Shown in pieces: positions 1 through 10,031 of a stretch of DNA of 10,031 nucleotides. A program made the position numbers and the translations under genes. Location of the stretch: IMG/VR virus record IMGVR_UViG_2663763232_000016. One strand, given 5' to 3'. Source of the DNA: a virus (taxonomy: Duplodnaviria; Heunggongvirae; Uroviricota; Caudoviricetes). Each line of letters begins with the position of its first letter. Position 1 is the stretch's first letter. Below the pieces are notes generated by a model. It was not told where the DNA came from and made no database searches. It was given only the letters and a program-made list of their open reading frames with translations.

Positions 1-360
1 TACTCTGCCAGCCTGACCAACTTCACTTCGTCAATACGGTTCTCGCTATACGCTTACCGTACAAAAGCACTAGCTCTGGCTGAACTTTATAAAGCTAACG
101 AGGTTGCAGCCGATGACAAAATTGGTGGTCGTAAGGTGGAAGTAACCGGAACTGTACAGGACATAACAAAAAATTTCACGGATGATGTAGTTCTTAAACT
201 TGAAAGCGGTAATCGCTTCATGCCAGTCAGTCTGAGTATGTCTGATTCAGAAAAGGCGAAAGCGTCGAAATTGGAAAAGGGCCAGAAGATCACCGTGACT
301 TGCGAAAAGATGCAGTTTTTCATCGGTGCACCGTCTGGCGGAAACTGCACCTTTAACTAA
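1..360 (+). CDS. C-terminal part of an OB-fold (tRNA_anti-like / BOF-type) protein; gene start lies upstream of the window
   Basis: Frame 1 is open from base 1 to TAA at 358-360 (the ORF track shows only the part from GTG 136). The translation ...ELYKANEVAADDKIGGRKVEVTGTVQDI...KGQKITVTCEK has the spacing typical of small OB-fold proteins. Family call is pattern recognition only. Confidence 0.55.
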   Translation, partial: YSASLTNFTSSIRFSLYAYRTKALALAELYKANEVAADDKIGGRKVEVTGTVQDITKNFTDDVVLKLESGNRFMPVSLSMSDSEKAKASKLEKGQKITVTCEKMQFFIGAPSGGNCTFN

Positions 361-1653: not shown

Positions 1654-1743
1654 TACCTGCACGATTTTCGTGTACCCACCCCCTCGATTTTCGAGCACCT
1701 ACCTGCACGATTTTCGAGTAGGGGGTAGTCGATTTTCGAGCAC
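1654..1743. repeat. Iteron-like array: four direct repeats of core CGATTTTCG(A/T)G, organised as a tandem ~46-bp duplication, followed by an AT-rich tract
   Basis: Core copies start at 1662, 1685, 1708 and 1730 (spacing 23, 23, 22 bp, about two helical turns). Units 1654-1699 and 1700-1745 are near-identical except the centre (CCCACCCCC versus TAGGGGGTA). AT-rich run AATAATAATAAATAACAAT begins at 1744. Confidence 0.6.
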
Positions 1744-3025: not shown

Positions 3026-3229
3026 ATGAACATCAAATTTCAACAGCACGTTTATCAGGCTCTACTAGCTGAGGCCAAAAGGCAGGACAAGCCCCTGGCA
3101 CGGCTCTGTAATGAAATCTTGGAGACTGCCGCGAACATTTTCGACAACACACCAGACATCAAACCAGCATTAGCCAGCAAGGCGACACTTTACGGAGAAC
3201 AGAATGAGCAAACAGAACCGGGACAGTAA
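3026..3229 (+). CDS. Small DNA-binding protein, ribbon-helix-helix-like (CopG/Arc/ParG-type fold suspected), 67 aa
   Basis: AGGAGG at 3011-3016, 9 nt before ATG 3026. N-terminal short strand (NIKFQQ) followed by two predicted helices (HVYQALLAEAKRQD / PLARLCNEILETA) matches RHH layout. Not confirmed by search. Confidence 0.7.
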   Translation: MNIKFQQHVYQALLAEAKRQDKPLARLCNEILETAANIFDNTPDIKPALASKATLYGEQNEQTEPGQ

Positions 3230-3950
3230 GGATTTTGTAAAACTTGAATACAGCATTCTCGACCTTACCGAGTACAACGGCCTGACCATTAATGGCAACA
3301 TGAAAATTTTGCTATCTCTGGTTTACAGCTATGACAAAACAGGCAGAACTTATTACGAGTCTGTTGGCATGATTGGTAAACGTTGCGGCTGCAAGCCCGA
3401 AGCCGTTCGTAATTTCAGGAACAAGCTTCGTGAAGCGGGAATGATCACTTTTGAGGAAGAGCAGGGGAGAACACACAAAATTTCTCCGGTCGAACTCGAT
3501 CCATCGTTGATGGTTTTTCTTGACGATCATAATTCCACGCAGGTGAGTAATAGAAAAGTGGAAACCGAGGAGAGCGGTAAGAATGAGCAGAAACGTGATG
3601 TGGAATCTTTCGTGGTGGAACCTGCCGCGCCTGTTGCTGGAAAACCAGACGGCCTACCTGTTGTGGATATTCCTGTCGATGCTGATGTACCTGCCAATGA
3701 TGATGCGGTGAACGCTTCTGATAGGTATACCGATGAACAATTAGGCACCAAGCTGAGGCGATGGCGCAATTGGGGACTGGATGAAGAAGCAAAAGCGTTT
3801 TGTCTCTCTCATGGTATCAGCAGCGATGAGGACAGCATGAATCTGTTTATTCAAAATTATCATGTACCCGCACCGGAGTCAGTAGAACAACAGGTTAACG
3901 CCCCAGCAGATGAGCTGCCGCTTGATTATGATGACTCGATCCCTTTCTGA
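3204..3950 (+). CDS. Protein with N-terminal winged-helix-like DNA-binding domain (resembling replisome-organizer / replication-initiator N-domains) and an acidic, low-complexity C-terminal half, 248 aa
   Basis: GGAGA at 3194-3198, 5 nt before ATG 3204; the start overlaps the 3-prime end of the RHH gene by 26 nt. Segment KILLSLVYSYDKTGRTYYESVGMIGKRCGCKPEAVRNFRNKLREAGMITFEE looks like helix-turn-wing. C-terminal half is rich in D/E/P. Confidence 0.8.
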   Translation: MSKQNRDSKDFVKLEYSILDLTEYNGLTINGNMKILLSLVYSYDKTGRTYYESVGMIGKRCGCKPEAVRNFRNKLREAGMITFEEEQGRTHKISPVELDPSLMVFLDDHNSTQVSNRKVETEESGKNEQKRDVESFVVEPAAPVAGKPDGLPVVDIPVDADVPANDDAVNASDRYTDEQLGTKLRRWRNWGLDEEAKAFCLSHGISSDEDSMNLFIQNYHVPAPESVEQQVNAPADELPLDYDDSIPF

Positions 3951-3964
3951 TACTGGAGGAATAA

Positions 3965-4486
3965 TTGTGTGATGTTGCCAACAGCCTGACGGCTGAAACC
4001 CTTACGGTGCGAAGCACTTTACCAGAGGTAAACAAATCCGGTGCTGACGCCCCTGATTTGTCCCGTTTTTACAAGGCCCGCTCTCGTGATACCTCGTTGA
4101 TCGAGACTGCTAAAAAAATGCTCGTTCACGGTTACACCCCAGGCAAAACGGCGCTGCTCCTACGCTTGCCGTATGACCTGGTAAAAGGCCTTTACGATAA
4201 CTCGTGGAATCCTCGCTGTCGCAAGATAAGTAATACCAGTCAGTACGCTACTAAGCGAATGGCCCGAATGTACTACGAATCCGGCGCAATGCTGGCAAAA
4301 ATCTGTGCTGACCTTCAACTGCCTCTATTCACTGTGGTAACGCTGCTCAAGCGTGAAGGAATCACTGAAAAAGAAATGGCATCTCGAATGCCTGTTAGTG
4401 ATGATCCGTTGTTCATTGAGTACCGGAAGACTATTTCACGCAAGCAGGCAGCGCCCCAACGCCGATCACCACGACTGCATTATTAA
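3965..4486 (+). CDS. Hypothetical protein with two HTH-like segments, 173 aa; start codon uncertain
   Basis: ORF runs from TTG 3965 to TAA 4484-4486; GGAGGA at 3955-3960 sits only 4 nt upstream. HTH-like stretches: SLIETAKKMLVHGYTPGKTALLLRL and GAMLAKICADLQLPLFTVVTLLKREG. GYTPGKT is not a canonical Walker A motif. Confidence 0.65.
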   Translation: MCDVANSLTAETLTVRSTLPEVNKSGADAPDLSRFYKARSRDTSLIETAKKMLVHGYTPGKTALLLRLPYDLVKGLYDNSWNPRCRKISNTSQYATKRMARMYYESGAMLAKICADLQLPLFTVVTLLKREGITEKEMASRMPVSDDPLFIEYRKTISRKQAAPQRRSPRLHY

Positions 4487-4600: not shown

Positions 4601-4933
4601 ATGAATAACATTGAAGCAATCCGCGCCAGTATCCGGGAAGCAATGACCGCAGGAACAGACGAACCGGAAGATCTGAACAAATCCGCTGAAGAAGCATTGG
4701 CGGAGGCGGTGCAGAGTTACCTGTCCGCTTCGACTGCAACAGCCAGCGAGCCAGCCCCAAAAAGTGGTAAAACCATCAAGGAAAAAGGGATCGCTCTGTG
4801 CCACCAAGCCCAAGGTTATAGCGCTAATCTGCGTCCGGTAAGTCTCATGATGAAGGCAAGTCTTGATGAGCTAACACCTGAACAACGCGCCGCGCTTGAG
4901 CGTCTGGGTTACGATATCAATCAGGGGGTGTGA
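4601..4933 (+). CDS. Hypothetical protein, about 110 aa from ATG 4601; the in-frame TTG at 4505 would add 32 hydrophobic residues
   Basis: AGGAAA at 4585-4590 lies 10 nt before ATG 4601. The TGA stop at 4931-4933 overlaps the ATG of the next gene (TGATG). Alternative longer ORF from TTG 4505 as given in the ORF track. Confidence 0.6.
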   Translation: MNNIEAIRASIREAMTAGTDEPEDLNKSAEEALAEAVQSYLSASTATASEPAPKSGKTIKEKGIALCHQAQGYSANLRPVSLMMKASLDELTPEQRAALERLGYDINQGV

Positions 4934-7074
4934 TGTCTGGCACAAATAAGATTGTTACCAGCACCGTTAATGAAATCTCGTGGATCACAGACGATGCCTC
5001 ATATCAAAAAGCCAAAAAGAAGATTATCTCGCTTAAGGCTGCTCATGAGAAACCAGCTAAAGCGCTTGAGAAGGCCCAGAAGCGGACCGTCCAGAGTGAA
5101 GGCAAAGCAGCACTAGCCGCAGCGAAAGCCCAGACAGCGAAGCTACGCCAGGCTGAACAATTGTCAAAACAGCAACAGAAACAAGCTCAGATACAAGCCA
5201 AAATGGAACGGGATGCAGTCTCCCACGCTAATAAAATGACCTCATTACAGGCGCGTCAGTTATCCCAGCAGGAACAGGCCGCACGGCAGAATGCCAGACT
5301 AGCAGCGATATCTGACAAGGTGAGACAGGCGAGTCGCTCCCGTGCAATGACCTACAATCCCAACATGCCTGGAGTTCACTCCGATCCATCTCTGGTGGCA
5401 CGTCAAAATGCAGCGATGAACCGTGGTCACGGCGCTGTTGCTGCTGACATCGCAGCCACCAAAAAGGCGATGGCCTTGGAGGAGAAGCGTCAGCGTGAGA
5501 AAGAGGCAGGCCTTAAGCGCGAGGTGACTTATTACAACAGTTTGCGCCGTAGCGCTCTGACTCTGGCAAACGTGAACGGCGCTGACGTTGCAACCCGGTA
5601 CAAAGCCATCAGTGCAGCAAAAGAGGCACTTAAAGCCCAGAAAGAAGAGCGCTATACGGTTGAAGAGACCCGCTTCGAAATGGCTCGTATCACCACCGAA
5701 TTACGCAAGCAGGCTCGTCTGCAACAGCGTATGACCCGTGAGCAGAAAGCCGCAGGTGTTCGTGCTGGTCGTGTACGCACAGAAAGCCGTGGTGGTAGAG
5801 CTGGTCTTGCAGCTGCTGGTGTTATTGGTGGTGCGTCGTTAGTGGGTAGTATGGGCGTTTCTCGTGTCGGTCAGACCCTCCAGGGAAGCCTTGAGCGCTC
5901 TCGCGATGTGAAAAAACTCCAGCAGTACGGGATCAGCAACCTTGAGTTCGCTGCACTTCAGGATCTCTCGATGAGCCGTGTTGGTTACTCACTGAGTGCT
6001 GACAAGCTGGCTGACCTCAACAAGGACACAACCGAAAAGGCCGGGGAATTGTTAAACACCGGCTCTTTCAAACGTAACAAGAAAACTGGACAGGTGAATT
6101 TCAGCGGCGGTGGCGAGTTCGCAGATATCATCAACAATGTGCTGACCTCCACCAACGGTAACCAGAAGGTAGCACAGAAGGTGATCGGAGAACTGCAAAA
6201 GCTGGATTTTCCGACCTTCATCACTTACCTGAAACAGTTGCAGAAAACTTTCAAATGGACGGACAACCAGACCCGGCACCTGGCTGAGGCTGTGAATGAT
6301 GGTTCGGTCTTCCTCGAAGTGTTCAATGATGAGGGGCAGGGACTTATCCAGCGTATGCATCAACTCTCTTCTGAAGGATGGACCCTATCTGATGCGCAGC
6401 AAGCCAACCTCGATAAACTGGCGGCGTTAGGTGCTGAGTACAACCGAGTGCAAACCAGCCTTGCAGATCATTTCTCAGCCTCGTTTGTTGAAGGCCTGGG
6501 GCAGTACGCTGCCAATACTGAAACTCTACGTCAGAAGATGACTGGACTGATCCCAATTTCCGATGCCCTCGGCGTTGCCCTTGGTGAGCTAACCACCAAC
6601 ATTCTCTCCTTCTCTGGTCGAGTCGGTGAAGAACTTAAGAAAGGCGCGACATTGCCGGATGCGGTGTATGCGAGCGTGGTAGATGAATCTGCAAACGGTG
6701 CTGCCGATTGGATTAAGGAAAAGACAGGCTTTGATCCACGTAGCATCGGTCAGACGCTTAAGCAGATTTACCCGTGGCTGGATAGTTCAGCACCGAGCAA
6801 TATTGGCTCAGGCACGGCGTATAACGATCCAGCGCTAGCGTTGAATGTTCCTAGCCTGAACTATCTGACACCCCAGCAACCGACGTTTACGGTTCCGACA
6901 ATTGACAGCATGACGCTGCGACAGCCGATTCCTGTCAGTGTTACCGGGCAAGCGAACATTAATCAGCAGATGGATGTGTTTGTCCATGACGATAAGATCG
7001 CAGGGCTGGTTGATACCAAGATAAGGGAGAACAACCACGCGCAGAATAACCTCATCCTTGGGATTGCAGACTAA
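4933..7074 (+). CDS. Large protein (about 713 aa) with N-terminal A/K/Q-rich coiled-coil region, central glycine-zipper hydrophobic segment and a C-terminal domain of about 400 aa; function unknown (virion structural, scaffold-like or tape-measure-like are possibilities)
   Basis: ATG 4933 coupled to the upstream stop (TGATG) with AGGGGG at 4923-4928; a GTG at 4930 is the ORF-track start. TAA at 7072-7074. Hydrophobic segment GRAGLAAAGVIGGASLVGSMGV. No P-loop or catalytic motif recognised. Confidence 0.9.
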   Translation: MSGTNKIVTSTVNEISWITDDASYQKAKKKIISLKAAHEKPAKALEKAQKRTVQSEGKAALAAAKAQTAKLRQAEQLSKQQQKQAQIQAKMERDAVSHANKMTSLQARQLSQQEQAARQNARLAAISDKVRQASRSRAMTYNPNMPGVHSDPSLVARQNAAMNRGHGAVAADIAATKKAMALEEKRQREKEAGLKREVTYYNSLRRSALTLANVNGADVATRYKAISAAKEALKAQKEERYTVEETRFEMARITTELRKQARLQQRMTREQKAAGVRAGRVRTESRGGRAGLAAAGVIGGASLVGSMGVSRVGQTLQGSLERSRDVKKLQQYGISNLEFAALQDLSMSRVGYSLSADKLADLNKDTTEKAGELLNTGSFKRNKKTGQVNFSGGGEFADIINNVLTSTNGNQKVAQKVIGELQKLDFPTFITYLKQLQKTFKWTDNQTRHLAEAVNDGSVFLEVFNDEGQGLIQRMHQLSSEGWTLSDAQQANLDKLAALGAEYNRVQTSLADHFSASFVEGLGQYAANTETLRQKMTGLIPISDALGVALGELTTNILSFSGRVGEELKKGATLPDAVYASVVDESANGAADWIKEKTGFDPRSIGQTLKQIYPWLDSSAPSNIGSGTAYNDPALALNVPSLNYLTPQQPTFTVPTIDSMTLRQPIPVSVTGQANINQQMDVFVHDDKIAGLVDTKIRENNHAQNNLILGIAD

Positions 7075-7158
7075 AATCATCGTTCCGTCGAAAATGGCGC
7101 AGCAAATTGGCCCACACGAGAGAGGGCCGTTGAATTCGCCATGTTATTGTTTTTGTTG

Positions 7159-7187
7159 TTGCAAATGATAATCATTCGTGTTAAAAT
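7159..7187 (+). promoter_or_regulatory. Strong sigma70-like promoter TTGCAA-17-TAAAAT with extended -10 TG
   Basis: -35 TTGCAA at 7159-7164, 17-nt spacer, TG at 7179-7180, -10 TAAAAT at 7182-7187, set in an AT-rich stretch; predicted start near 7195. Confidence 0.4.
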
Positions 7188-7243
7188 AATATACAAGGTG
7201 AATTACAACAGCCAAATGTTTTCCCTTCTCCTTAGGAATCAAA

Positions 7244-7270
7244 GTGCGCTTTTCCCAGAGCGCCTTTTCT
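7244..7270 (+). terminator. Weak intrinsic-terminator-like hairpin about 50-75 nt downstream of the 7159-7187 promoter
   Basis: GCGCT (7246-7250) pairs with AGCGC (7259-7263) around an 8-nt loop, followed by CTTTTCT (7264-7270). Short stem, so low confidence. Confidence 0.3.
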
Positions 7271-7532
7271 CATACAGCCAATATTCGCACCCTCTCACGG
7301 TAAGGTTAGGCCATTGCCGCTGGCTGTATCAGAAAAGATTTTCTCCGACCTTGGATCGGGGATTTGCCAAAGCCTTTCATCCTCGGAAGGCCGTCTTGCC
7401 AGACGAAAACTGGCATTGAGTGCGGCAGCGAAGATATGAGGTCTCCCGCTGCTGTGCTCCCTCATTCCTGAAGCGTGACCCGCCGATCATGCTTTCCAAA
7501 TCTCTCCATCAGAAAATACCATCGTGAAGCTA

Positions 7533-7552
7533 TTAGCAACGCATGTTGCTAA
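7533..7552. repeat. 20-bp palindrome TTAGCAAC-GCAT-GTTGCTAA (candidate operator or RNA hairpin)
   Basis: Perfect 8-bp inverted arms with a 4-bp spacer, read directly from the sequence; sits between the promoter at 7159 and the terminators at 7595-7678. Confidence 0.5.
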
Positions 7553-7594
7553 CCCGTAAACGGGTGAATTTCATCATCTCCGATGATCTACCAA

Positions 7595-7629
7595 CCGGGG
7601 CAGGCGTTTTCCTGCCTCCGGCTCTTTTT
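7595..7629 (+). terminator. Rho-independent terminator (about 10-bp stem with one bulge, then CTCTTTTT)
   Basis: CCGGGGCAGG (7595-7604) pairs with CCTGCC-T-CCGG (7611-7621) around loop CGTTTT; T-run at 7625-7629. Confidence 0.5.
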
Positions 7630-7654
7630 CTGTTGGGAATACAAATAAAAGAAT

Positions 7655-7678
7655 GCCGTCCGATGGACGGTATTTTTT
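7655..7678 (+). terminator. Rho-independent terminator (GC-rich stem CCGTCC/GGACGG followed by TATTTTTT)
   Basis: Stem 7656-7661 pairs with 7665-7670 around a 3-nt loop; T-run at 7673-7678; 40 nt upstream of the capsid-pair start. Confidence 0.6.
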
Positions 7679-7735
7679 CAACACAACCCGGCATATTCGC
7701 CGGATTATAAAAATTGCATGGAGATACAACAAAAT

Positions 7736-8080
7736 ATGGCATTCGAACATGAAAGCAAAACCCCACAGGATGTATTGGTTTATACCGATAGCCCGATCTT
7801 TCATAAGCGCACCGTGATCTTTGATCTGGCTGCTGATGTGACTTGTGGTGATGTGATTAACCCGACCACTGGCGCGGCATACGTTGCAGCCGATGCTGAT
7901 AACTGTGCTGTAGCTCTGCAAAATCAAATCGCTGGTGATGCCCGTAGCCTGGTCATTTCAGACCGTGGCTGTGTGTTCAATCCATCTGGTCTGGTTGTAG
8001 CGGCTGCTGCAAAAGATGCTGCTTACGCTGCCCTTGTTAAGCAAGGCAACCGCATTGCTGACGCAAACACTGCAATCTAA
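7736..8080 (+). CDS. Putative head decoration protein (lambda gpD-like size and composition), about 114 aa; alternative start ATG 7718
   Basis: ORF from ATG 7718 to TAA 8078-8080; the second ATG at 7736 has GGAGA at 7720-7724 (11-nt spacing) whereas 7718 has no Shine-Dalgarno. Small Ala/Gly-rich protein directly upstream of a capsid-sized gene; segment TTGAAYVAADADNCA resembles lambda D TDGAAVGILAVAADQ. Not confirmed by search. Confidence 0.7.
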   Translation: MAFEHESKTPQDVLVYTDSPIFHKRTVIFDLAADVTCGDVINPTTGAAYVAADADNCAVALQNQIAGDARSLVISDRGCVFNPSGLVVAAAAKDAAYAALVKQGNRIADANTAI

Positions 8081-8098: not shown

Positions 8099-9115
8099 AT
8101 GAAATTAAGTGATTTTACTAACCTTTCCGGTCAGTTTGTGAAGCCAAGCGGCGAGGGGTTCCTTCTGTCCAGCCTGGGGATCTTTACCAGCCGTCCAAGT
8201 GATACGCAAATCATCGCGCTCGACACACTGGAAGATGTGCAGCGTGAAGTGACCAAATCTGTTGCCCGTTATGGTTCTGAAATGTCCGGTCTAAACTTCC
8301 CTAAAGCGGCTAACGTGACTGTTCAGGCTCCACTGCATGTCTACAGCTCAACCATCACCAGCCAGGATTGGCAGGGGAAACGTCAGCCGGGAACAAATCG
8401 CCAGATGACCGCTGAAGATGTAGTTGCTAATCATACCCTGAAGCACTACCTGCAAACCCGCCGTGATGTTGAATATGCCATGGCGCAGAGCCTGCTTCAC
8501 AATACTGTAGAGGCGACACACCTTCGTGAAGGTCCTGATCTGAACTGGCAAACCTTCTGGGGTATTAACCAGCCGTCTGCTGTGGTGAAAACTGGCATCA
8601 GTGCCAACGTTATTACTGAGATGCAGAACGCTGTCACGCTGCTGAAGAAAAATCTGGGTGGCTGGTCTTCCAGCATCAAGCAGGTTTATCTGCTAGCGAG
8701 TCCGAGTCTTTTCACCGCCATTCAAGGCAACCCAACCGCATATCAGGCGGCTCTGTTTGGTGCTACGTCCCGTGACATCATTTTCCCTGACACTTTGGGC
8801 GCATATGATCGATACAACATCGGGCGCGTAACTGTAGTTCAGGTTGACGATCCGCTATACGGCATTGCAGATGGTGAAGGCTACATGCTGGCGACGTTCT
8901 CCAATGTTGTTGAAGGCGACCTTTCACCTTATATGACTTACCAGACTCCGGCGAGCCGTCATGCTGACGTTGCTAATGGTCCGGTTTATCCGTCTTACCA
9001 TTACGTTCTGCGTGATAAGTTCATGAATTATGAGGTGGTCAGCGAGCTATCACAAATTCAGATCCCAATGCGTCCAGACTTCGTTTTGAAAATTACGATG
9101 GATGACGCGGCGTAA
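8099..9115 (+). CDS. Putative major capsid protein (lambda gpE-like / HK97-fold class suggested by size and synteny), 338 aa
   Basis: AAGGAG at 8083-8088, 10 nt before ATG 8099; TAA at 9113-9115. Length close to lambda gpE (341 aa), directly downstream of the decoration-like gene, about 50 percent GC. Family call is from context and size, not from detectable identity to lambda E. Confidence 0.85.
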   Translation: MKLSDFTNLSGQFVKPSGEGFLLSSLGIFTSRPSDTQIIALDTLEDVQREVTKSVARYGSEMSGLNFPKAANVTVQAPLHVYSSTITSQDWQGKRQPGTNRQMTAEDVVANHTLKHYLQTRRDVEYAMAQSLLHNTVEATHLREGPDLNWQTFWGINQPSAVVKTGISANVITEMQNAVTLLKKNLGGWSSSIKQVYLLASPSLFTAIQGNPTAYQAALFGATSRDIIFPDTLGAYDRYNIGRVTVVQVDDPLYGIADGEGYMLATFSNVVEGDLSPYMTYQTPASRHADVANGPVYPSYHYVLRDKFMNYEVVSELSQIQIPMRPDFVLKITMDDAA

Positions 9116-9177
9116 GACAGCGTATTTTGGGGGCGCATTGCCCCCGCTGCAGGCGAGCCAAAGGAAAGGAGATACAT

Positions 9178-9390
9178 ATGAAATTAGCTTTGATCGGTAC
9201 TGGCAACATGCCGCTGATGCAGTGGATTCTAGATGGCAAGGGCGATGATGCGATTATCAACATGTCAGCGTTAGCACGCAGGCTTGAGTGTAGTCGTTCC
9301 AGCCTACTTGACCGCATCCATACGCATGGATTCGACAGCGCTATTAGGTACTACCTCAACGAACAGCGACAACGAAAACTGAAAACATGA
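9178..9390 (+). CDS. Small protein with HTH-like segment, 70 aa (the ORF track shows a longer version from 9127)
   Basis: AGGAGA at 9167-9172, 5 nt before ATG 9178; TGA at 9388-9390. Segment INMSALARRLECSRSSLLDRIH looks like a helix-turn-helix. Function unknown. Confidence 0.55.
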   Translation: MKLALIGTGNMPLMQWILDGKGDDAIINMSALARRLECSRSSLLDRIHTHGFDSAIRYYLNEQRQRKLKT

Positions 9391-9391
9391 G

Positions 9392-9416
9392 AGCCGGGTT
9401 AATCCCGGCTTTTTTT
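9392..9416. terminator. Bidirectional rho-independent terminator shared by the capsid transcription unit and the convergent minus-strand gene
   Basis: Perfect 7-bp stem AGCCGGG / CCCGGCT around loop TTAAT, flanked by an A-run upstream and TTTTTTT at 9410-9416. The stop codon of the minus-strand gene lies in the loop. Confidence 0.75.
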
Positions 9417-10031
9417 ATGTACTTTGCTGAAGTCAAAAAGATTGTCAAATTTAATGATATCTAATCCAGAGATAGCGTGATTAACATCTTTCATCATTGC
9501 GCCATGTTCATCATAAGCGTTACGTATTGCCATGAATTCTTCTGGTGTTATCTGTGCTTTAAGCAAAGCCTGCATGATGAGAGTCATCAGTTTTGAGATG
9601 GCTATTTGCGTATTACCAGAAGATCGAAGAAGGGCGTTGAATGGCTCCCAGGAAACCTTTTTAATCAGAACATTATAGTGACTTAACTTGATGAAAGAGC
9701 TACCAATGCGAAAGGTATTTTCCGTCATATCTTTCAAGGATTCTTGAATATGATAATAGCTTTCTTCGTCGGCTTTTTGTCCTGATTTCGCCAGTGTGTC
9801 GAGAAAAGTCATAATGCGGTTTAAGTCAAAGCGCATACGATTGTAACGGCTTCTGGTGCTATCAATTTCTTCTTTAAGAGCGATTGCTGAATCAATTGCC
9901 CGCTCCATTTTTCTCGTCTTCACAATCTCCTGAAGTTTAACCCCTCCGAAGATGACGCCGCCAACCACACTCAACGCTGTTACAGCATTCGAAGCGATAG
10001 AGATAATGTTATCCCATGCTTGTAAATCCAT
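9399..10031 (-). CDS. Membrane-anchored protein (N-terminal transmembrane helix plus helical soluble domain), at least 210 aa; possible moron / superinfection-exclusion or abortive-infection candidate; may extend beyond the window
   Basis: ORF ends at TAA (complement of 9399-9401); its ATG is the last three bases of the window, so the true start may lie outside. Hydrophobic segment IISIASNAVTALSVVGGVIFGGV near the N-terminus. Local GC is about 34 percent in a hand-counted 100-nt sample versus about 50 percent in the capsid gene. Confidence 0.8.
   Translation of the reverse strand: MDLQAWDNIISIASNAVTALSVVGGVIFGGVKLQEIVKTRKMERAIDSAIALKEEIDSTRSRYNRMRFDLNRIMTFLDTLAKSGQKADEESYYHIQESLKDMTENTFRIGSSFIKLSHYNVLIKKVSWEPFNALLRSSGNTQIAISKLMTLIMQALLKAQITPEEFMAIRNAYDEHGAMMKDVNHAISGLDIIKFDNLFDFSKVHKKSRD

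Follow-up and report, generated by a model that had tools for sequence, protein, structure and literature searches.

The window analysed here, a stretch of 10,031 nucleotides from a Caudoviricetes record (IMGVR_UViG_2663763232_000016), lies within an integrated element of ~13.4 kb that is bounded by a 71-bp att repeat and carries an integrase, a putative iteron origin and a DUF6945 replication-like gene. It includes a gene for a homolog of phage tape-measure proteins (TMPs), and the window has the following features.

1661..1743, no strand: four iterons (TCGATTTTCGAGCAC) spaced by 22-23 bp within a gene-free stretch of ~2.1 kb, a probable replication origin
3204..3950, plus strand: replication-initiator-like protein (HTH_36; DUF6945 in relatives)
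4601..4933, plus strand: 110-aa gene coupled to the TMP gene (phrog_2970, E=2.7e-16)
4933..7074, plus strand: TMP gene, 713 aa, of the phi92 gp134 / FBKp34 gp168 family
7156..7229, no strand: conserved core of the 0.64-kb gap separating TMP from capsid genes, with a promoter-like site at 7159-7187
7718..8080, plus strand: decoration/cement-like protein (RefSeq start 7736; Pfam HDPD at E=6e-4, below the family cut-off)
8099..9115, plus strand: major capsid protein, lambda gpE-like with an HK97 fold (phrog_29, E=2.5e-9; Pfam Phage_cap_E, E=0.0028)

Besides the integrase, the TMP and the capsid protein, the only product of the element longer than 250 aa is an OB-fold protein, and scans of all its genes against Pfam, PHROGs and NCBIfam detected no portal, terminase, tube, sheath, chaperone or baseplate gene; nor does any gene of the element bear a tail-chaperone or hub signature. 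Judged by this gene content, the element appears satellite-like, keeping among virion genes only those for capsid, decoration and tape measure. The capsid protein aligns over 97% of its length with those of 94-140 kb myophages, at 24% identity, and the decoration protein matches its counterparts in FBKp34 and rV5-like phages in profile-profile comparison (probability 84%, E=7.7e-6, 97 columns). By tblastn, the decoration-like protein and two further products of 173 and 148 aa found no match in phage genomes. The gap core upstream of the capsid operon is 93% identical in one relative (L005) whose flanking TMP and capsid protein are 62% and 32% identical, respectively, and it is a probable regulatory element of that operon. 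PADLOC assigned the accessory genes of the window to no defence family, Rfam recognized no RNA family in the gene-free stretches, and a tRNA search returned none.

The 110-aa gene immediately upstream of the TMP gene, which shows no tail-chaperone signature, contains a short segment shared with phages. Positions 4769-4855 encode this segment (KTIKEKGIALCHQAQGYSANLRPVSLMMK), which reproduces the N-terminal sequence of the protein in the scaffold slot of rV5-like myophages. It matches 321 phage records at 57-76% identity by tblastn and aligns with residues 7-41 of nomine_4, whose gene is flanked by the portal/XkdF-like genes on one side and by those for decoration and capsid on the other. The alternative protein that occupies the upstream position in some relatives (the L004/L011 type) has no phage match.

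The TMP gene itself is an uninterrupted open reading frame from the ATG at 4933 to the stop codon at 7072-7074, as seen in the ORF list and translation, and the RefSeq annotation gives the same 713-aa protein. The first-pass annotation had called this frame correctly, albeit at 714 aa, a figure that counts either the stop codon or an in-frame GTG at 4930. The ATG overlaps the stop codon of the upstream gene (GTGTGATG) and lies 4 nt downstream of a GGGGG Shine-Dalgarno-like run, an arrangement that suggests translational coupling of the two genes. Since dN/dS is 0.09-0.26 in every region when compared with seven diverged copies, and near-identical proteins of the 713-aa type occur on hundreds of contigs (a single protein variant on 664), the reading frame is real and conserved, far beyond a chance ORF. 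It is intact in all loci, and its product measures 709-725 aa among close relatives.

Along the protein, composition, AlphaFold models, periodicity tests and family alignments delineate six segments, all on the plus strand.

4945..5034, residues 5-34: conserved N-terminal TMP motif, NKIVTSTVNEISWITDDASYQKAKKKIISL, common to phi92-like and rV5-like TMPs
4993..5751, residues 21-273: Ala/Lys/Gln/Arg-rich long-helix region with a weak heptad signal
5788..5868, residues 286-312: Gly-rich hydrophobic segment
5995..6306, residues ~355-458: central block (SADKLADLNKD..KKTG..SGGGEF..AEAVNDGS), the most conserved part
6634..6762, residues 568-610: mosaic module, ~60% identical to a TMP segment of temperate Klebsiella and Salmonella phages (Mulock, SEN34 and others)
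7006..7068, residues 692-712: C-terminal helix, predicted by AlphaFold and aligned by profile to the gp134 C-terminus

The N-terminal third had been described at first pass as rich in A, K, Q and R over roughly 280 residues with heptad-like periodicity. The composition holds (residues 1-280 contain 18.6% A, 10.4% K, 9.3% Q and 9.3% R), and AlphaFold places very long helices at residues 21-136, 153-212, 219-238 and 243-273. The periodicity fares less well: a Fourier test yields z<=2 throughout, and a heptad-register test gives z=0.6 over the longest predicted helix (residues 20-136), 2.2 over residues 153-273 and 3.5 over residues 1-285 as a whole. The region is thus rightly called long and helical, and a coiled coil is weakly supported for the monomer sequence. 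Both AlphaFold models are of low confidence overall (pLDDT 45.9 and 45.6), and a Foldseek search of PDB and BFVD with the second of them, a low-confidence query, returned nothing at E<=0.001.

The glycine-zipper-like hydrophobic stretch noted earlier was recovered at residues 288-309 (GRAGLAAAGVIGGASLVGSMGV), with three small-xxx-small-xxx-small patterns inside it. Hydropathy across the protein peaks at residues 291-309, where the 19-residue mean Kyte-Doolittle value reaches 1.57, just below the usual membrane-span cut-off of 1.6 and therefore borderline. The segment is predicted to be disordered in the monomer (pLDDT 23-27), and family alignments place a Gly-rich hydrophobic segment at the same position in all members without conserving its sequence. 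What follows was originally taken for a large C-terminal domain of about 400 residues. In the models it is instead an extended helical body, not a globular one, comprising, at low confidence, ~17 helices over residues 312-612, then disorder (613-691) and finally the terminal helix (692-712). The only confidently modelled compact unit is about 100 residues long (~357-457, pLDDT 67-86) and coincides with the central block, whose invariant or near-invariant columns are D361, K364, D365, G371, G394, E452 and D456, and which is 97-98% identical between satellites with diverged termini. The mosaic module matches by BLAST at 63% identity over 43 aa (E=1.7e-12), is also found by tblastn, and is missing from some satellite copies.

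What, then, is this protein? Four PHROG tape-measure families match it (PHROGs 2854, 16051, 5255 and 36805). A profile of the full family matches phi92 gp134 in the PDB (21vq_V) at E=1.7e-85, and one restricted to satellite-type sequences still does so over residues 8-51 and 182-693 (E=1e-14). The family profile also matches another TMP of solved structure, 9cuy_W, at 2.3e-10. BLAST and tblastn align the protein with gp168 of Klebsiella phage FBKp34 (31% over ~260 aa, E=4e-37), which occupies the TMP slot of that phage, after sheath, tube and a Phage_TAC_15 chaperone and before a Dit-like gene. The N-terminal motif aligns with phi92 gp134 residues 7-50, 9cuy_W residues 4-144 and the rV5-like nomine_16. 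At the other end, the C-terminal columns of the full-family profile align with gp134 residues 589-656, and the satellite-only profile extends to gp134 residue 640. Phi92 gp134 forms a trimeric TMP whose C-terminus lies in the baseplate, where the trimer of residues 631-656 was resolved in the interior (PMC13450770), and we infer that helix 692-712 is the equivalent of this C-terminus inside the baseplate hub. The comparisons show that the 713-aa protein is, by sequence, homologous over most of its length to the TMP of phi92-like contractile-tailed myophages, a protein with an experimentally established tail location. Its character agrees with such an assignment, being extended, mainly alpha-helical and several hundred residues long with a Gly-rich hydrophobic segment.

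The genomic context is another matter. The gene lies outside any tail module, and neither the element nor its close relatives contain a sheath, tube, Phage_TAC_15 or Dit-like gene. Its surroundings depart from the phage arrangement, which does not speak against the homology. The first reading had found the site beside the capsid pair abnormal for a tape-measure, ejection, internal virion or scaffold protein. That remark is correct for phages, and the site finds its reason, which had been missed, in the satellite-like integrative element to which the window belongs. Among the options then proposed, the tape measure is borne out (PHROG, BLAST, gp134 profile). A match to a portal, prohead protease or scaffold family, offered as a refutation, did not turn up in Pfam, PHROGs, NCBIfam or the PDB search.

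Pfam and NCBIfam scans of the protein matched no family, the best hit of a single-sequence PDB search was non-significant (8kea_P, E=0.63), and scans of viral contigs with three distant members (P0126, P0125 and P0129) gave no match. A repeat homolog search with the family alignment recovered the same close cluster and added little. Most database copies are labelled "chemotaxis protein" (methyl-accepting, in NCBI and UniRef), and this label is the ground for reading the protein as a chemoreceptor. Neither MCPsignal nor HAMP nor any other chemoreceptor signalling domain was matched in Pfam or NCBIfam, all significant matches are phage TMPs, and we give the chemoreceptor reading practically no credence. 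The label probably stems from low-complexity helical similarity.

The gene does not travel alone. TMP, decoration and capsid genes occur together in every relative examined, in Escherichia, Enterobacter, Klebsiella, Cronobacter, Kosakonia and Sodalis (loci L004-L013, L016 and L017), down to 23-30% identity, and homologs of the FBKp34 sheath, tube and chaperone were found in none of these loci. A precomputed Phage_cap_E hit is on record for the capsid homologs of L011, L012, L016 and L017. At least six genera share this compact gene set, and matches were seen in 51 of 5,426 complete E. coli genomes. The position of the TMP gene relative to the capsid genes varies, being downstream in Sodalis and L017 and on the opposite strand in Kosakonia. 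Some distant relatives have more: an extra Dit-like tube initiator follows the TMP in the Sodalis relative and only there among relatives, and L017 encodes an additional homolog of FBKp34 gp176 (Pfam Phage_Adaptor_PhiTE on record). The relatives differ in integrase and att site and carry varying anti-phage cargo (DarTG, AbiTii or Sie-like), and their modules reassort between copies, as is typical of an active mobile element. We also considered whether Logan contigs of 11.8-13.9 kb might represent free circular copies. L011 has no terminal overlap and stops within the 3′ end of a tRNA, which marks its break as an artefact of assembly at the att repeat.

Taken together, these comparisons make it probable that the 713-aa protein is a functional tail TMP encoded by a phage satellite, which would build chimeric tails with parts of its helper. 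N-terminal, central and C-terminal motifs are all kept in common with phage TMPs in the alignments. Three links point to the helper: the copied scaffold motif is up to 76% identical to that of rV5-like phages, the N-terminal third of the TMP is closer to rV5-like than to phi92-like TMPs, and the decoration protein has its matches in FBKp34 and rV5-like phages. Since identity to any known phage TMP is ~28-31%, the fit with a specific helper baseplate is unproven; likewise, the last 60 residues have no significant pairwise similarity to the TMP C-termini of phi92, FBKp34, rV5-like phages or Mulock, and the C-terminus thus cannot identify the helper.

The proposed cycle would begin with infection by the helper, most likely one of the large lytic myophages of the rV5-like or phi92-like kind, upon which the satellite replicates and expresses two units, one comprising the 110-aa and TMP genes and the other the decoration and capsid genes. 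The satellite capsid protein would form a shell sized for ~13 kb around the portal and packaging proteins of the helper, possibly aided by the 110-aa protein, given its copy of the N-terminal motif of the helper scaffold. A trimer of the satellite TMP would take the place of the helper TMP in tail assembly, its C-terminus docking in the helper's baseplate hub and tube-initiator complex; as no satellite chaperone was detected in the element, the helper's chaperone would have to handle it. Helper tube and sheath would subsequently polymerize along the satellite TMP, whose length would set that of the tail. At 1.6 Å per residue, the expected tail length is ~114 nm for 713 aa, as compared to ~124 nm for a 778-aa rV5-like TMP and ~105 nm for phi92-like TMPs of 647-659 aa. 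On infection of the next cell, the TMP would be ejected first, with the Gly-rich segment helping to form an inner-membrane channel for the satellite DNA.

A broader proposition, to which we would assign slightly less than an even chance, is that the window represents a satellite family of Enterobacterales that parasitizes large virulent rV5-like and phi92-like myophages. Its chimeric virions would combine their own shell (capsid and decoration) and tape measure with the portal, motor, tube, sheath and baseplate of the helper, helper parts being recruited through short copied motifs, of which the scaffold N-terminus carried by the 110-aa protein would be one. The TMP may then be a core hijacking gene, exchanged between satellites to match helpers or hosts. 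A literature search found no description of this family.

Could the protein serve the satellite in some other way? Interference with the assembly of helper particles is common among satellites, and one of its known targets is tail assembly (the Tai systems, PMC11364771; Rta of PLE11). A TMP homolog might accordingly act as a decoy that competes for the helper's chaperone, hub or tube and poisons its tails, defending the host population while going unused in satellite particles; other defence cargo in the element family and the lack of an accompanying satellite chaperone or hub would suit such a role. For interference, however, an interacting end would suffice, yet all regions, both termini and the central block included, are under purifying selection at a length of 709-725 aa. 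Moreover, the satellite makes its own capsid, so tails are needed for spread, and what relatives add, namely a Dit-like tube initiator and an adaptor-slot protein, are building parts rather than inhibitors. A dedicated decoy therefore strikes us as unlikely, bearing in mind that one protein could both interfere with the helper and serve in the tails of the satellite.

Proximity to the capsid genes raises the further idea that the protein has been recruited to the satellite capsid as a scaffold, internal head or ejection protein, for its gene lies directly 5′ of the decoration and capsid genes and is coupled to the gene with the scaffold motif, the element has no recognizable scaffold or protease, and the long helical N-terminal part is scaffold-like in composition. 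This idea is quite improbable in view of TMP homology that spans the length and includes the C-terminal part seated in the phi92 baseplate, of scaffold, portal and protease families that are all unmatched, and of a gene order relative to the capsid genes that is not conserved (Sodalis, L017 and Kosakonia). Most remote among these uses and non-uses is a functionless leftover of a decayed prophage. The tail genes usual around a TMP are indeed absent and NCBI annotates the product merely as "hypothetical" or "chemotaxis protein", but the intact frames and dN/dS values described above, the recurrence of the same gene set in six or more genera alongside differing integrases and att sites, the variant present on 664 contigs, and module reassortment as in active mobile elements leave a relic scarcely credible.

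The first experimental demonstration of satellite-encoded TMPs came from the Vibrio PLE-ICP1 system, published in 2026 with the suggestion that the trait may be broader (PMC12987554). The present analysis places a conserved TMP in a compact, widespread satellite-like element of Escherichia coli, Klebsiella, Enterobacter and Cronobacter, pairs it with the element's own capsid and decoration genes in the absence of the PLE's chaperone and hub, and corrects the widespread misannotation as a chemotaxis protein. If the preferred reading is true, the element would offer a genetically tractable E. coli system in which to ask why a satellite would replace the tape measure, what lets a helper baseplate accept a foreign TMP, and how a capsid protein nucleates without its own portal. 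The likely helpers, lytic phages of the rV5-like and phi92-like kinds, are studied as candidates for therapy and biocontrol, and satellites with DarTG, AbiTii or Sie-like cargo that exploit or block such phages would bear on the outcome of phage therapy.

Among known systems, the closest proteins are the TMPs phi92 gp134 (PDB 21vq chain V) and FBKp34 gp168 of the Stephanstirmvirinae, which share the N-terminal motif, the Gly-rich segment at ~270-310, the central block and the C-terminal region, as well as a similar size (647-659 versus 713 aa) and extended helical character. They differ by an identity of just ~28-31% and by gene location, the phage genes lying between tail chaperones and a Dit-like tube initiator in a full tail module, whereas the satellite gene, in a 13.4-kb element with no other tail gene, adjoins capsid genes. 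The satellite protein further differs in its N-terminal third, nearer to rV5-like TMPs, and in the 43-residue module in common with temperate-phage TMPs.

The PLE satellites of Vibrio cholerae place their own TMP in chimeric tails with phage ICP1, which are shortened as predicted at 1.6 Å per residue (PMC12987554), and this TMP is required for efficient transduction (Nature 2026, PMC12987554; bioRxiv 10.1101/2025.01.29.635557). In both systems an integrative satellite devoid of tube, sheath and most baseplate genes carries a TMP gene whose product is a distant relative of the helper-type TMP, and the PLE case is the model followed here. PLE additionally encodes a tail chaperone and baseplate hub and uses the helper capsid protein with a PLE scaffold, whereas in the present element neither chaperone nor hub was detected and capsid and decoration are its own. 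The hosts here are Enterobacterales and the probable helper lineage is different; a tblastn search of 50,697 phage records with the 713-aa protein gave no Vibrio match.

The capsid-forming PICIs (cf-PICIs) resemble the element in being integrative satellites of Enterobacteriaceae with their own capsid, helper tails, cross-genus spread and defence cargo, and putative tmp genes have been noted in some of them (PMC12987554 Extended Data Fig. 10). By definition they hold at least 9 of up to 11 core genes, including terS, terL, HNH, portal, protease, head-tail adaptor and connector, with tail genes forbidden, and they also possess an AlpA-type regulator and a primase-replicase (PMC10085698). The present element has its own capsid, as these do, but no packaging or connector gene was detected in it (Pfam, PHROGs, NCBIfam), a tail gene, the TMP, is present, and replication would proceed via a DUF6945/HTH_36 protein and iterons. 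Finally, the EPIP satellites of Mycolicibacterium, compared here by description, belong to a siphophage system of actinobacteria and have a serine integrase, terS and head-tail connectors, unlike the element described here; they are nevertheless, like it, small satellites, reported to encode a major capsid protein and a TMP, and EPIP particles have altered tail lengths (bioRxiv 10.64898/2025.12.02.691453).

The gene at window 4933-7074 on the forward strand is an unbroken open reading frame of 713 codons plus a stop, and the RefSeq annotation of E. coli TC24 gives an identical 713-aa protein. The first-pass annotation gave a length, 714 residues, that is one too many, having counted either the stop codon or an in-frame GTG at 4930. 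A GGGGG run lies upstream of the ATG, which overlaps the stop of the preceding 110-aa gene (GTGTGATG), suggesting that the two genes are translationally coupled.

Pfam and NCBIfam scans of the protein returned no match. Four PHROGs families of the type "tail length tape measure protein" do match it, jointly spanning its N-terminus, centre and C-terminal part, and it is called the tape-measure protein (TMP) below. In a tblastn search of 50,697 phage records, residues 307-564 aligned at 31% identity with a protein of 647 aa that is encoded by the Klebsiella phages KP13-16 and vB_KpM_FBKp34 (hereafter FBKp34). The FBKp34 protein, gp168, occupies the canonical tape-measure slot, with sheath, tube, Phage_TAC_15 chaperone and a small open reading frame before it and Dit-like and baseplate genes after it. 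A profile of 26 TMP members matches the full length of Phi92_gp134 of Escherichia phage phi92 (PDB 21vq chain V, E=1.7e-85) as well as the N-terminus of another solved TMP, 9cuy_W; a profile built from satellite copies only recovers the same two proteins at E=1e-14 and 2.3e-10, respectively. The phi92 gp134 is an experimentally modelled trimeric TMP, residues 631-656 of which lie inside the baseplate (PMC13450770). When 1.84 billion representative proteins were searched exhaustively, only 59 related clusters emerged; their full-length members are 578-732 aa long and mostly ~24-33% identical, with two clusters nearer at 65-69%.

The N-terminal 217 residues of the protein resemble the TMP of rV5-like phages, which are large lytic Vequintavirus myophages (28% identity, E=7e-15, with a near-identical NPNM..AAMNR patch), and its centre and C-terminal part are phi92/FBKp34-like. 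A mosaic module of 43 residues (568-610, window 6634-6762) is ~60% identical to a TMP segment of temperate Klebsiella/Salmonella phages such as Mulock, ST405-OXA48phi1.2 and SEN34 and is absent from some satellite copies (P0122 and that of the divergent satellite L012), which suggests that satellites and unrelated phages have recently exchanged this sub-module. Copies with diverged termini, for example those at loci L006 and L007, still share a central block that is 97-98% conserved.

Two AlphaFold2 models of the TMP, both of low confidence (pLDDT 45.9 and 45.6), agree in their secondary structure.

Predicted architecture of the TMP (residues; AlphaFold2)
21 to 273: very long helices
274-311: disordered Gly-rich linker
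312 to 612: ~17 shorter helices
613 to 691: disordered stretch
692-712: terminal helix

Since the sole compact unit predicted confidently is limited to residues ~357-457, the protein is modelled as extended and helical, and the large C-terminal domain proposed from the sequence by eye is replaced, at this low confidence, by helices and disorder with no large globular fold. Fold searches with the model gave no useful match. The compositional description made earlier holds up: residues 1-280, read as A/K/Q/R-rich, contain 18.6% Ala, 10.4% Lys, 9.3% Gln and 9.3% Arg, and residues 281-320, where the Gly-rich hydrophobic stretch reported to follow lies, are 25% Gly. Residues 288-309 form the most hydrophobic 19-residue window, with a Kyte-Doolittle value of 1.57 that is borderline for a membrane span. 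The heptad-like periodicity described for the N-terminal region is weak (Fourier test, z<=2 across the N-terminal third), and when the heptad register was tested, z reached 0.6 at residues 20-136, 2.2 at 153-273 and 4.4 at 313-612.

The window is identical to part of the E. coli TC24 chromosome (locus L001), where it belongs to an inserted ~13.4-kb element that is flanked on either side by an annotated copy of the thiM TPP riboswitch and delimited by a 71-bp att repeat of 96% identity (L001 11802-11872 and 25171-25241).

Features of the integrated element (window coordinates unless L001 is named)
Tyrosine integrase
A few small genes
L001 14501-15307, 3' end at window 1-360: OB-fold, Sie-like (superinfection-exclusion-like) protein
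~361-2491: stretch of ~2.1 kb without genes, four iterons inside
DUF6945/HTH_36 replication-initiator-like gene
173-aa gene
4601-4933, forward: 110-aa gene, before the TMP gene
4933-7074, forward: TMP gene
7075-7717: 0.64-kb gap between the TMP and decoration-like genes
Decoration-like gene, then gpE-like capsid gene, after the gap
9127-9390 (RefSeq start 9178), forward: ~70-aa gene directly after the capsid gene
9399-10031, reverse: accessory gene, 210-aa product, right end of the element

A scan of every element gene found no portal, terminase, protease, connector, tube, sheath, chaperone or baseplate gene, and the unassigned products are all too small for a portal or large terminase. Profile-profile comparison links the product of the small gene ahead of the capsid gene to FBKp34 and rV5-like decoration proteins (probability 84%, E=7.7e-6). 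A compact element without other tail genes explains why the TMP gene sits beside capsid genes, a position that the first-pass annotation had rightly found odd. In tblastn searches with window proteins and FBKp34 structural proteins, TMP, decoration and capsid genes occur together in every fetched locus, and sheath, tube and chaperone homologs in none of them. The linkage extends to distant relatives. In Kosakonia arachidis, whose capsid pair lies on the opposite strand, identity is 29% for the TMP and 23% for the capsid protein; in Sodalis sp. RH20, a gene that is decoration-like by its position is followed by capsid, 59-aa, TMP and Dit-like genes in that order. Modules reassort between element copies: the TMP and capsid protein are 96% and 26% identical to those of the window in L011, and 70% and 99% identical in L004.

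Relatives also carry different integrases and use att sites other than the thiM riboswitch (tRNA-Gly in L004, tRNA-Thr in L005), and anti-phage cargo at their ends varies among DarT/NADAR (DarTG-like), AbiTii, DUF4145 and GNAT (L011 8998-10351; L012 9287-10186; L005 6020-6655 and 17089-17667), an organisation typical of phage satellites. The variable cargo at element ends, some of it anti-phage, also includes the OB-fold superinfection-exclusion-like protein. In Kosakonia arachidis, two adjacent HNH_3 endonuclease open reading frames lie just 3' of the TMP gene (L013 12404-13241). A Logan contig was considered as a free circular copy of the element and rejected, as L011 lacks a terminal overlap and the contig breaks at the att repeat; several scans of viral contigs for further loci yielded nothing useful.

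Outside the structural genes, the stretch at window ~361-2491 holds no credible or annotated gene and has no Rfam match, and satellite copies share it in mosaic blocks of 70-92% identity. Its four iterons (TCGATTTTCGAGCAC), spaced 22-23 bp apart at 1661-1743, are probably the replication origin, and the other ~2 kb may hold a packaging site or a non-coding RNA. The gap at 7075-7717 probably has two roles, in regulating the capsid operon and as a recombination joint between modules. Its 75-nt core (7156-7229), which includes a promoter-like site, retains 93% identity in L005, against only 62% and 32% for the genes on either side. The gap further contains a terminator-like hairpin (7597-7618) and an inverted repeat of 17 nt (7264-7280 / 7321-7337). 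The ~70-aa gene after the capsid gene, kept in nearly all satellite copies at 37-80% identity, has no family match; its product may bind DNA or act as a packaging-specificity factor. The 210-aa accessory protein matches no Pfam, PHROG or PADLOC family and has a 35%-identical homolog near the distant Kosakonia copy (L013 14388-14990). Rfam and PADLOC scans gave nothing informative on the element.

Clues to the helper phage come from the capsid side as well as from the TMP similarities described above. Among phages, the element capsid protein is related only to its counterparts in 94-140 kb myophages, FBKp34-like ones among them. A motif of ~30-40 residues in the 110-aa gene (KTIKEKGIALCHQAQGYSANLRPVSLMMK, window 4769-4855) shows 76% identity to the N-terminus of an rV5-like Vequintavirus 326-aa protein, which is in the scaffold slot, its gene lying between portal/XkdF-like and decoration/capsid genes. 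The motif occurs in 321 large-myophage records, and the variant in L012 also matches the N-terminus of an FBKp34 "possible scaffold". The motif appears to be a molecular mimic of a helper protein that acts in capsid assembly. Which hijacking parts are carried differs among family members: Sodalis has a Dit-like protein directly after the TMP (L016 11961-12584, 31% identical to FBKp34 gp167), and the metagenome contig L017 encodes, along with its TMP-capsid pair, a protein that shares 51% identity with FBKp34 gp176 (3856-4329; a Phage_Adaptor_PhiTE hit is recorded for it). The Dit-like and gp176-like genes are extra helper-interface parts of these distant relatives.

Tape-measure homology, selection on the gene, element context and capsid linkage are established, and we infer that the 713-aa protein would serve the satellite as a tape measure of its own, in tails whose remaining parts come from the helper. 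At 1.6 A per residue, 713 residues would give a tail of ~114 nm; a 778-aa rV5-like TMP would give ~124 nm, some 10 nm more, and a phi92-like TMP of 647-659 aa ~105 nm, some 9 nm less. Other roles are less well supported. Most public copies bear the name "chemotaxis protein", a misannotation given that no chemoreceptor domain is present, and a function as chemoreceptor ranks accordingly low. A relic is also the poorer account of a gene whose dN/dS is 0.09-0.26 across its length. A role inside the capsid, or as a decoy that interferes with the helper, is likewise less well supported than that of a tape measure.

Satellite TMPs are a recent finding, reported for the Vibrio cholerae satellites PLE (Nature, 2026) and for EPIPs, mycobacterial satellites carrying a TMP (bioRxiv 10.64898/2025.12.02.691453), with putative tmp genes noted in some capsid-forming PICIs (cf-PICIs; PMC12987554 Extended Data Fig. 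10). No description of the enterobacterial family was found in the literature searched, the coverage of which was incomplete, so an earlier description is possible. The PLE TMP takes the place of that of the helper phage ICP1; tails become shorter by the amount that 1.6 A per residue predicts, and PLE transduction is efficient only with this TMP (PMC12987554). Unlike PLE, the present element has no detectable chaperone or hub but encodes its own capsid shell, and it falls outside the definition of cf-PICIs (PMC10085698). The 713-aa protein can be summed up as a TMP of the phi92 family, carried by a minimal satellite alongside the satellite's own capsid genes.
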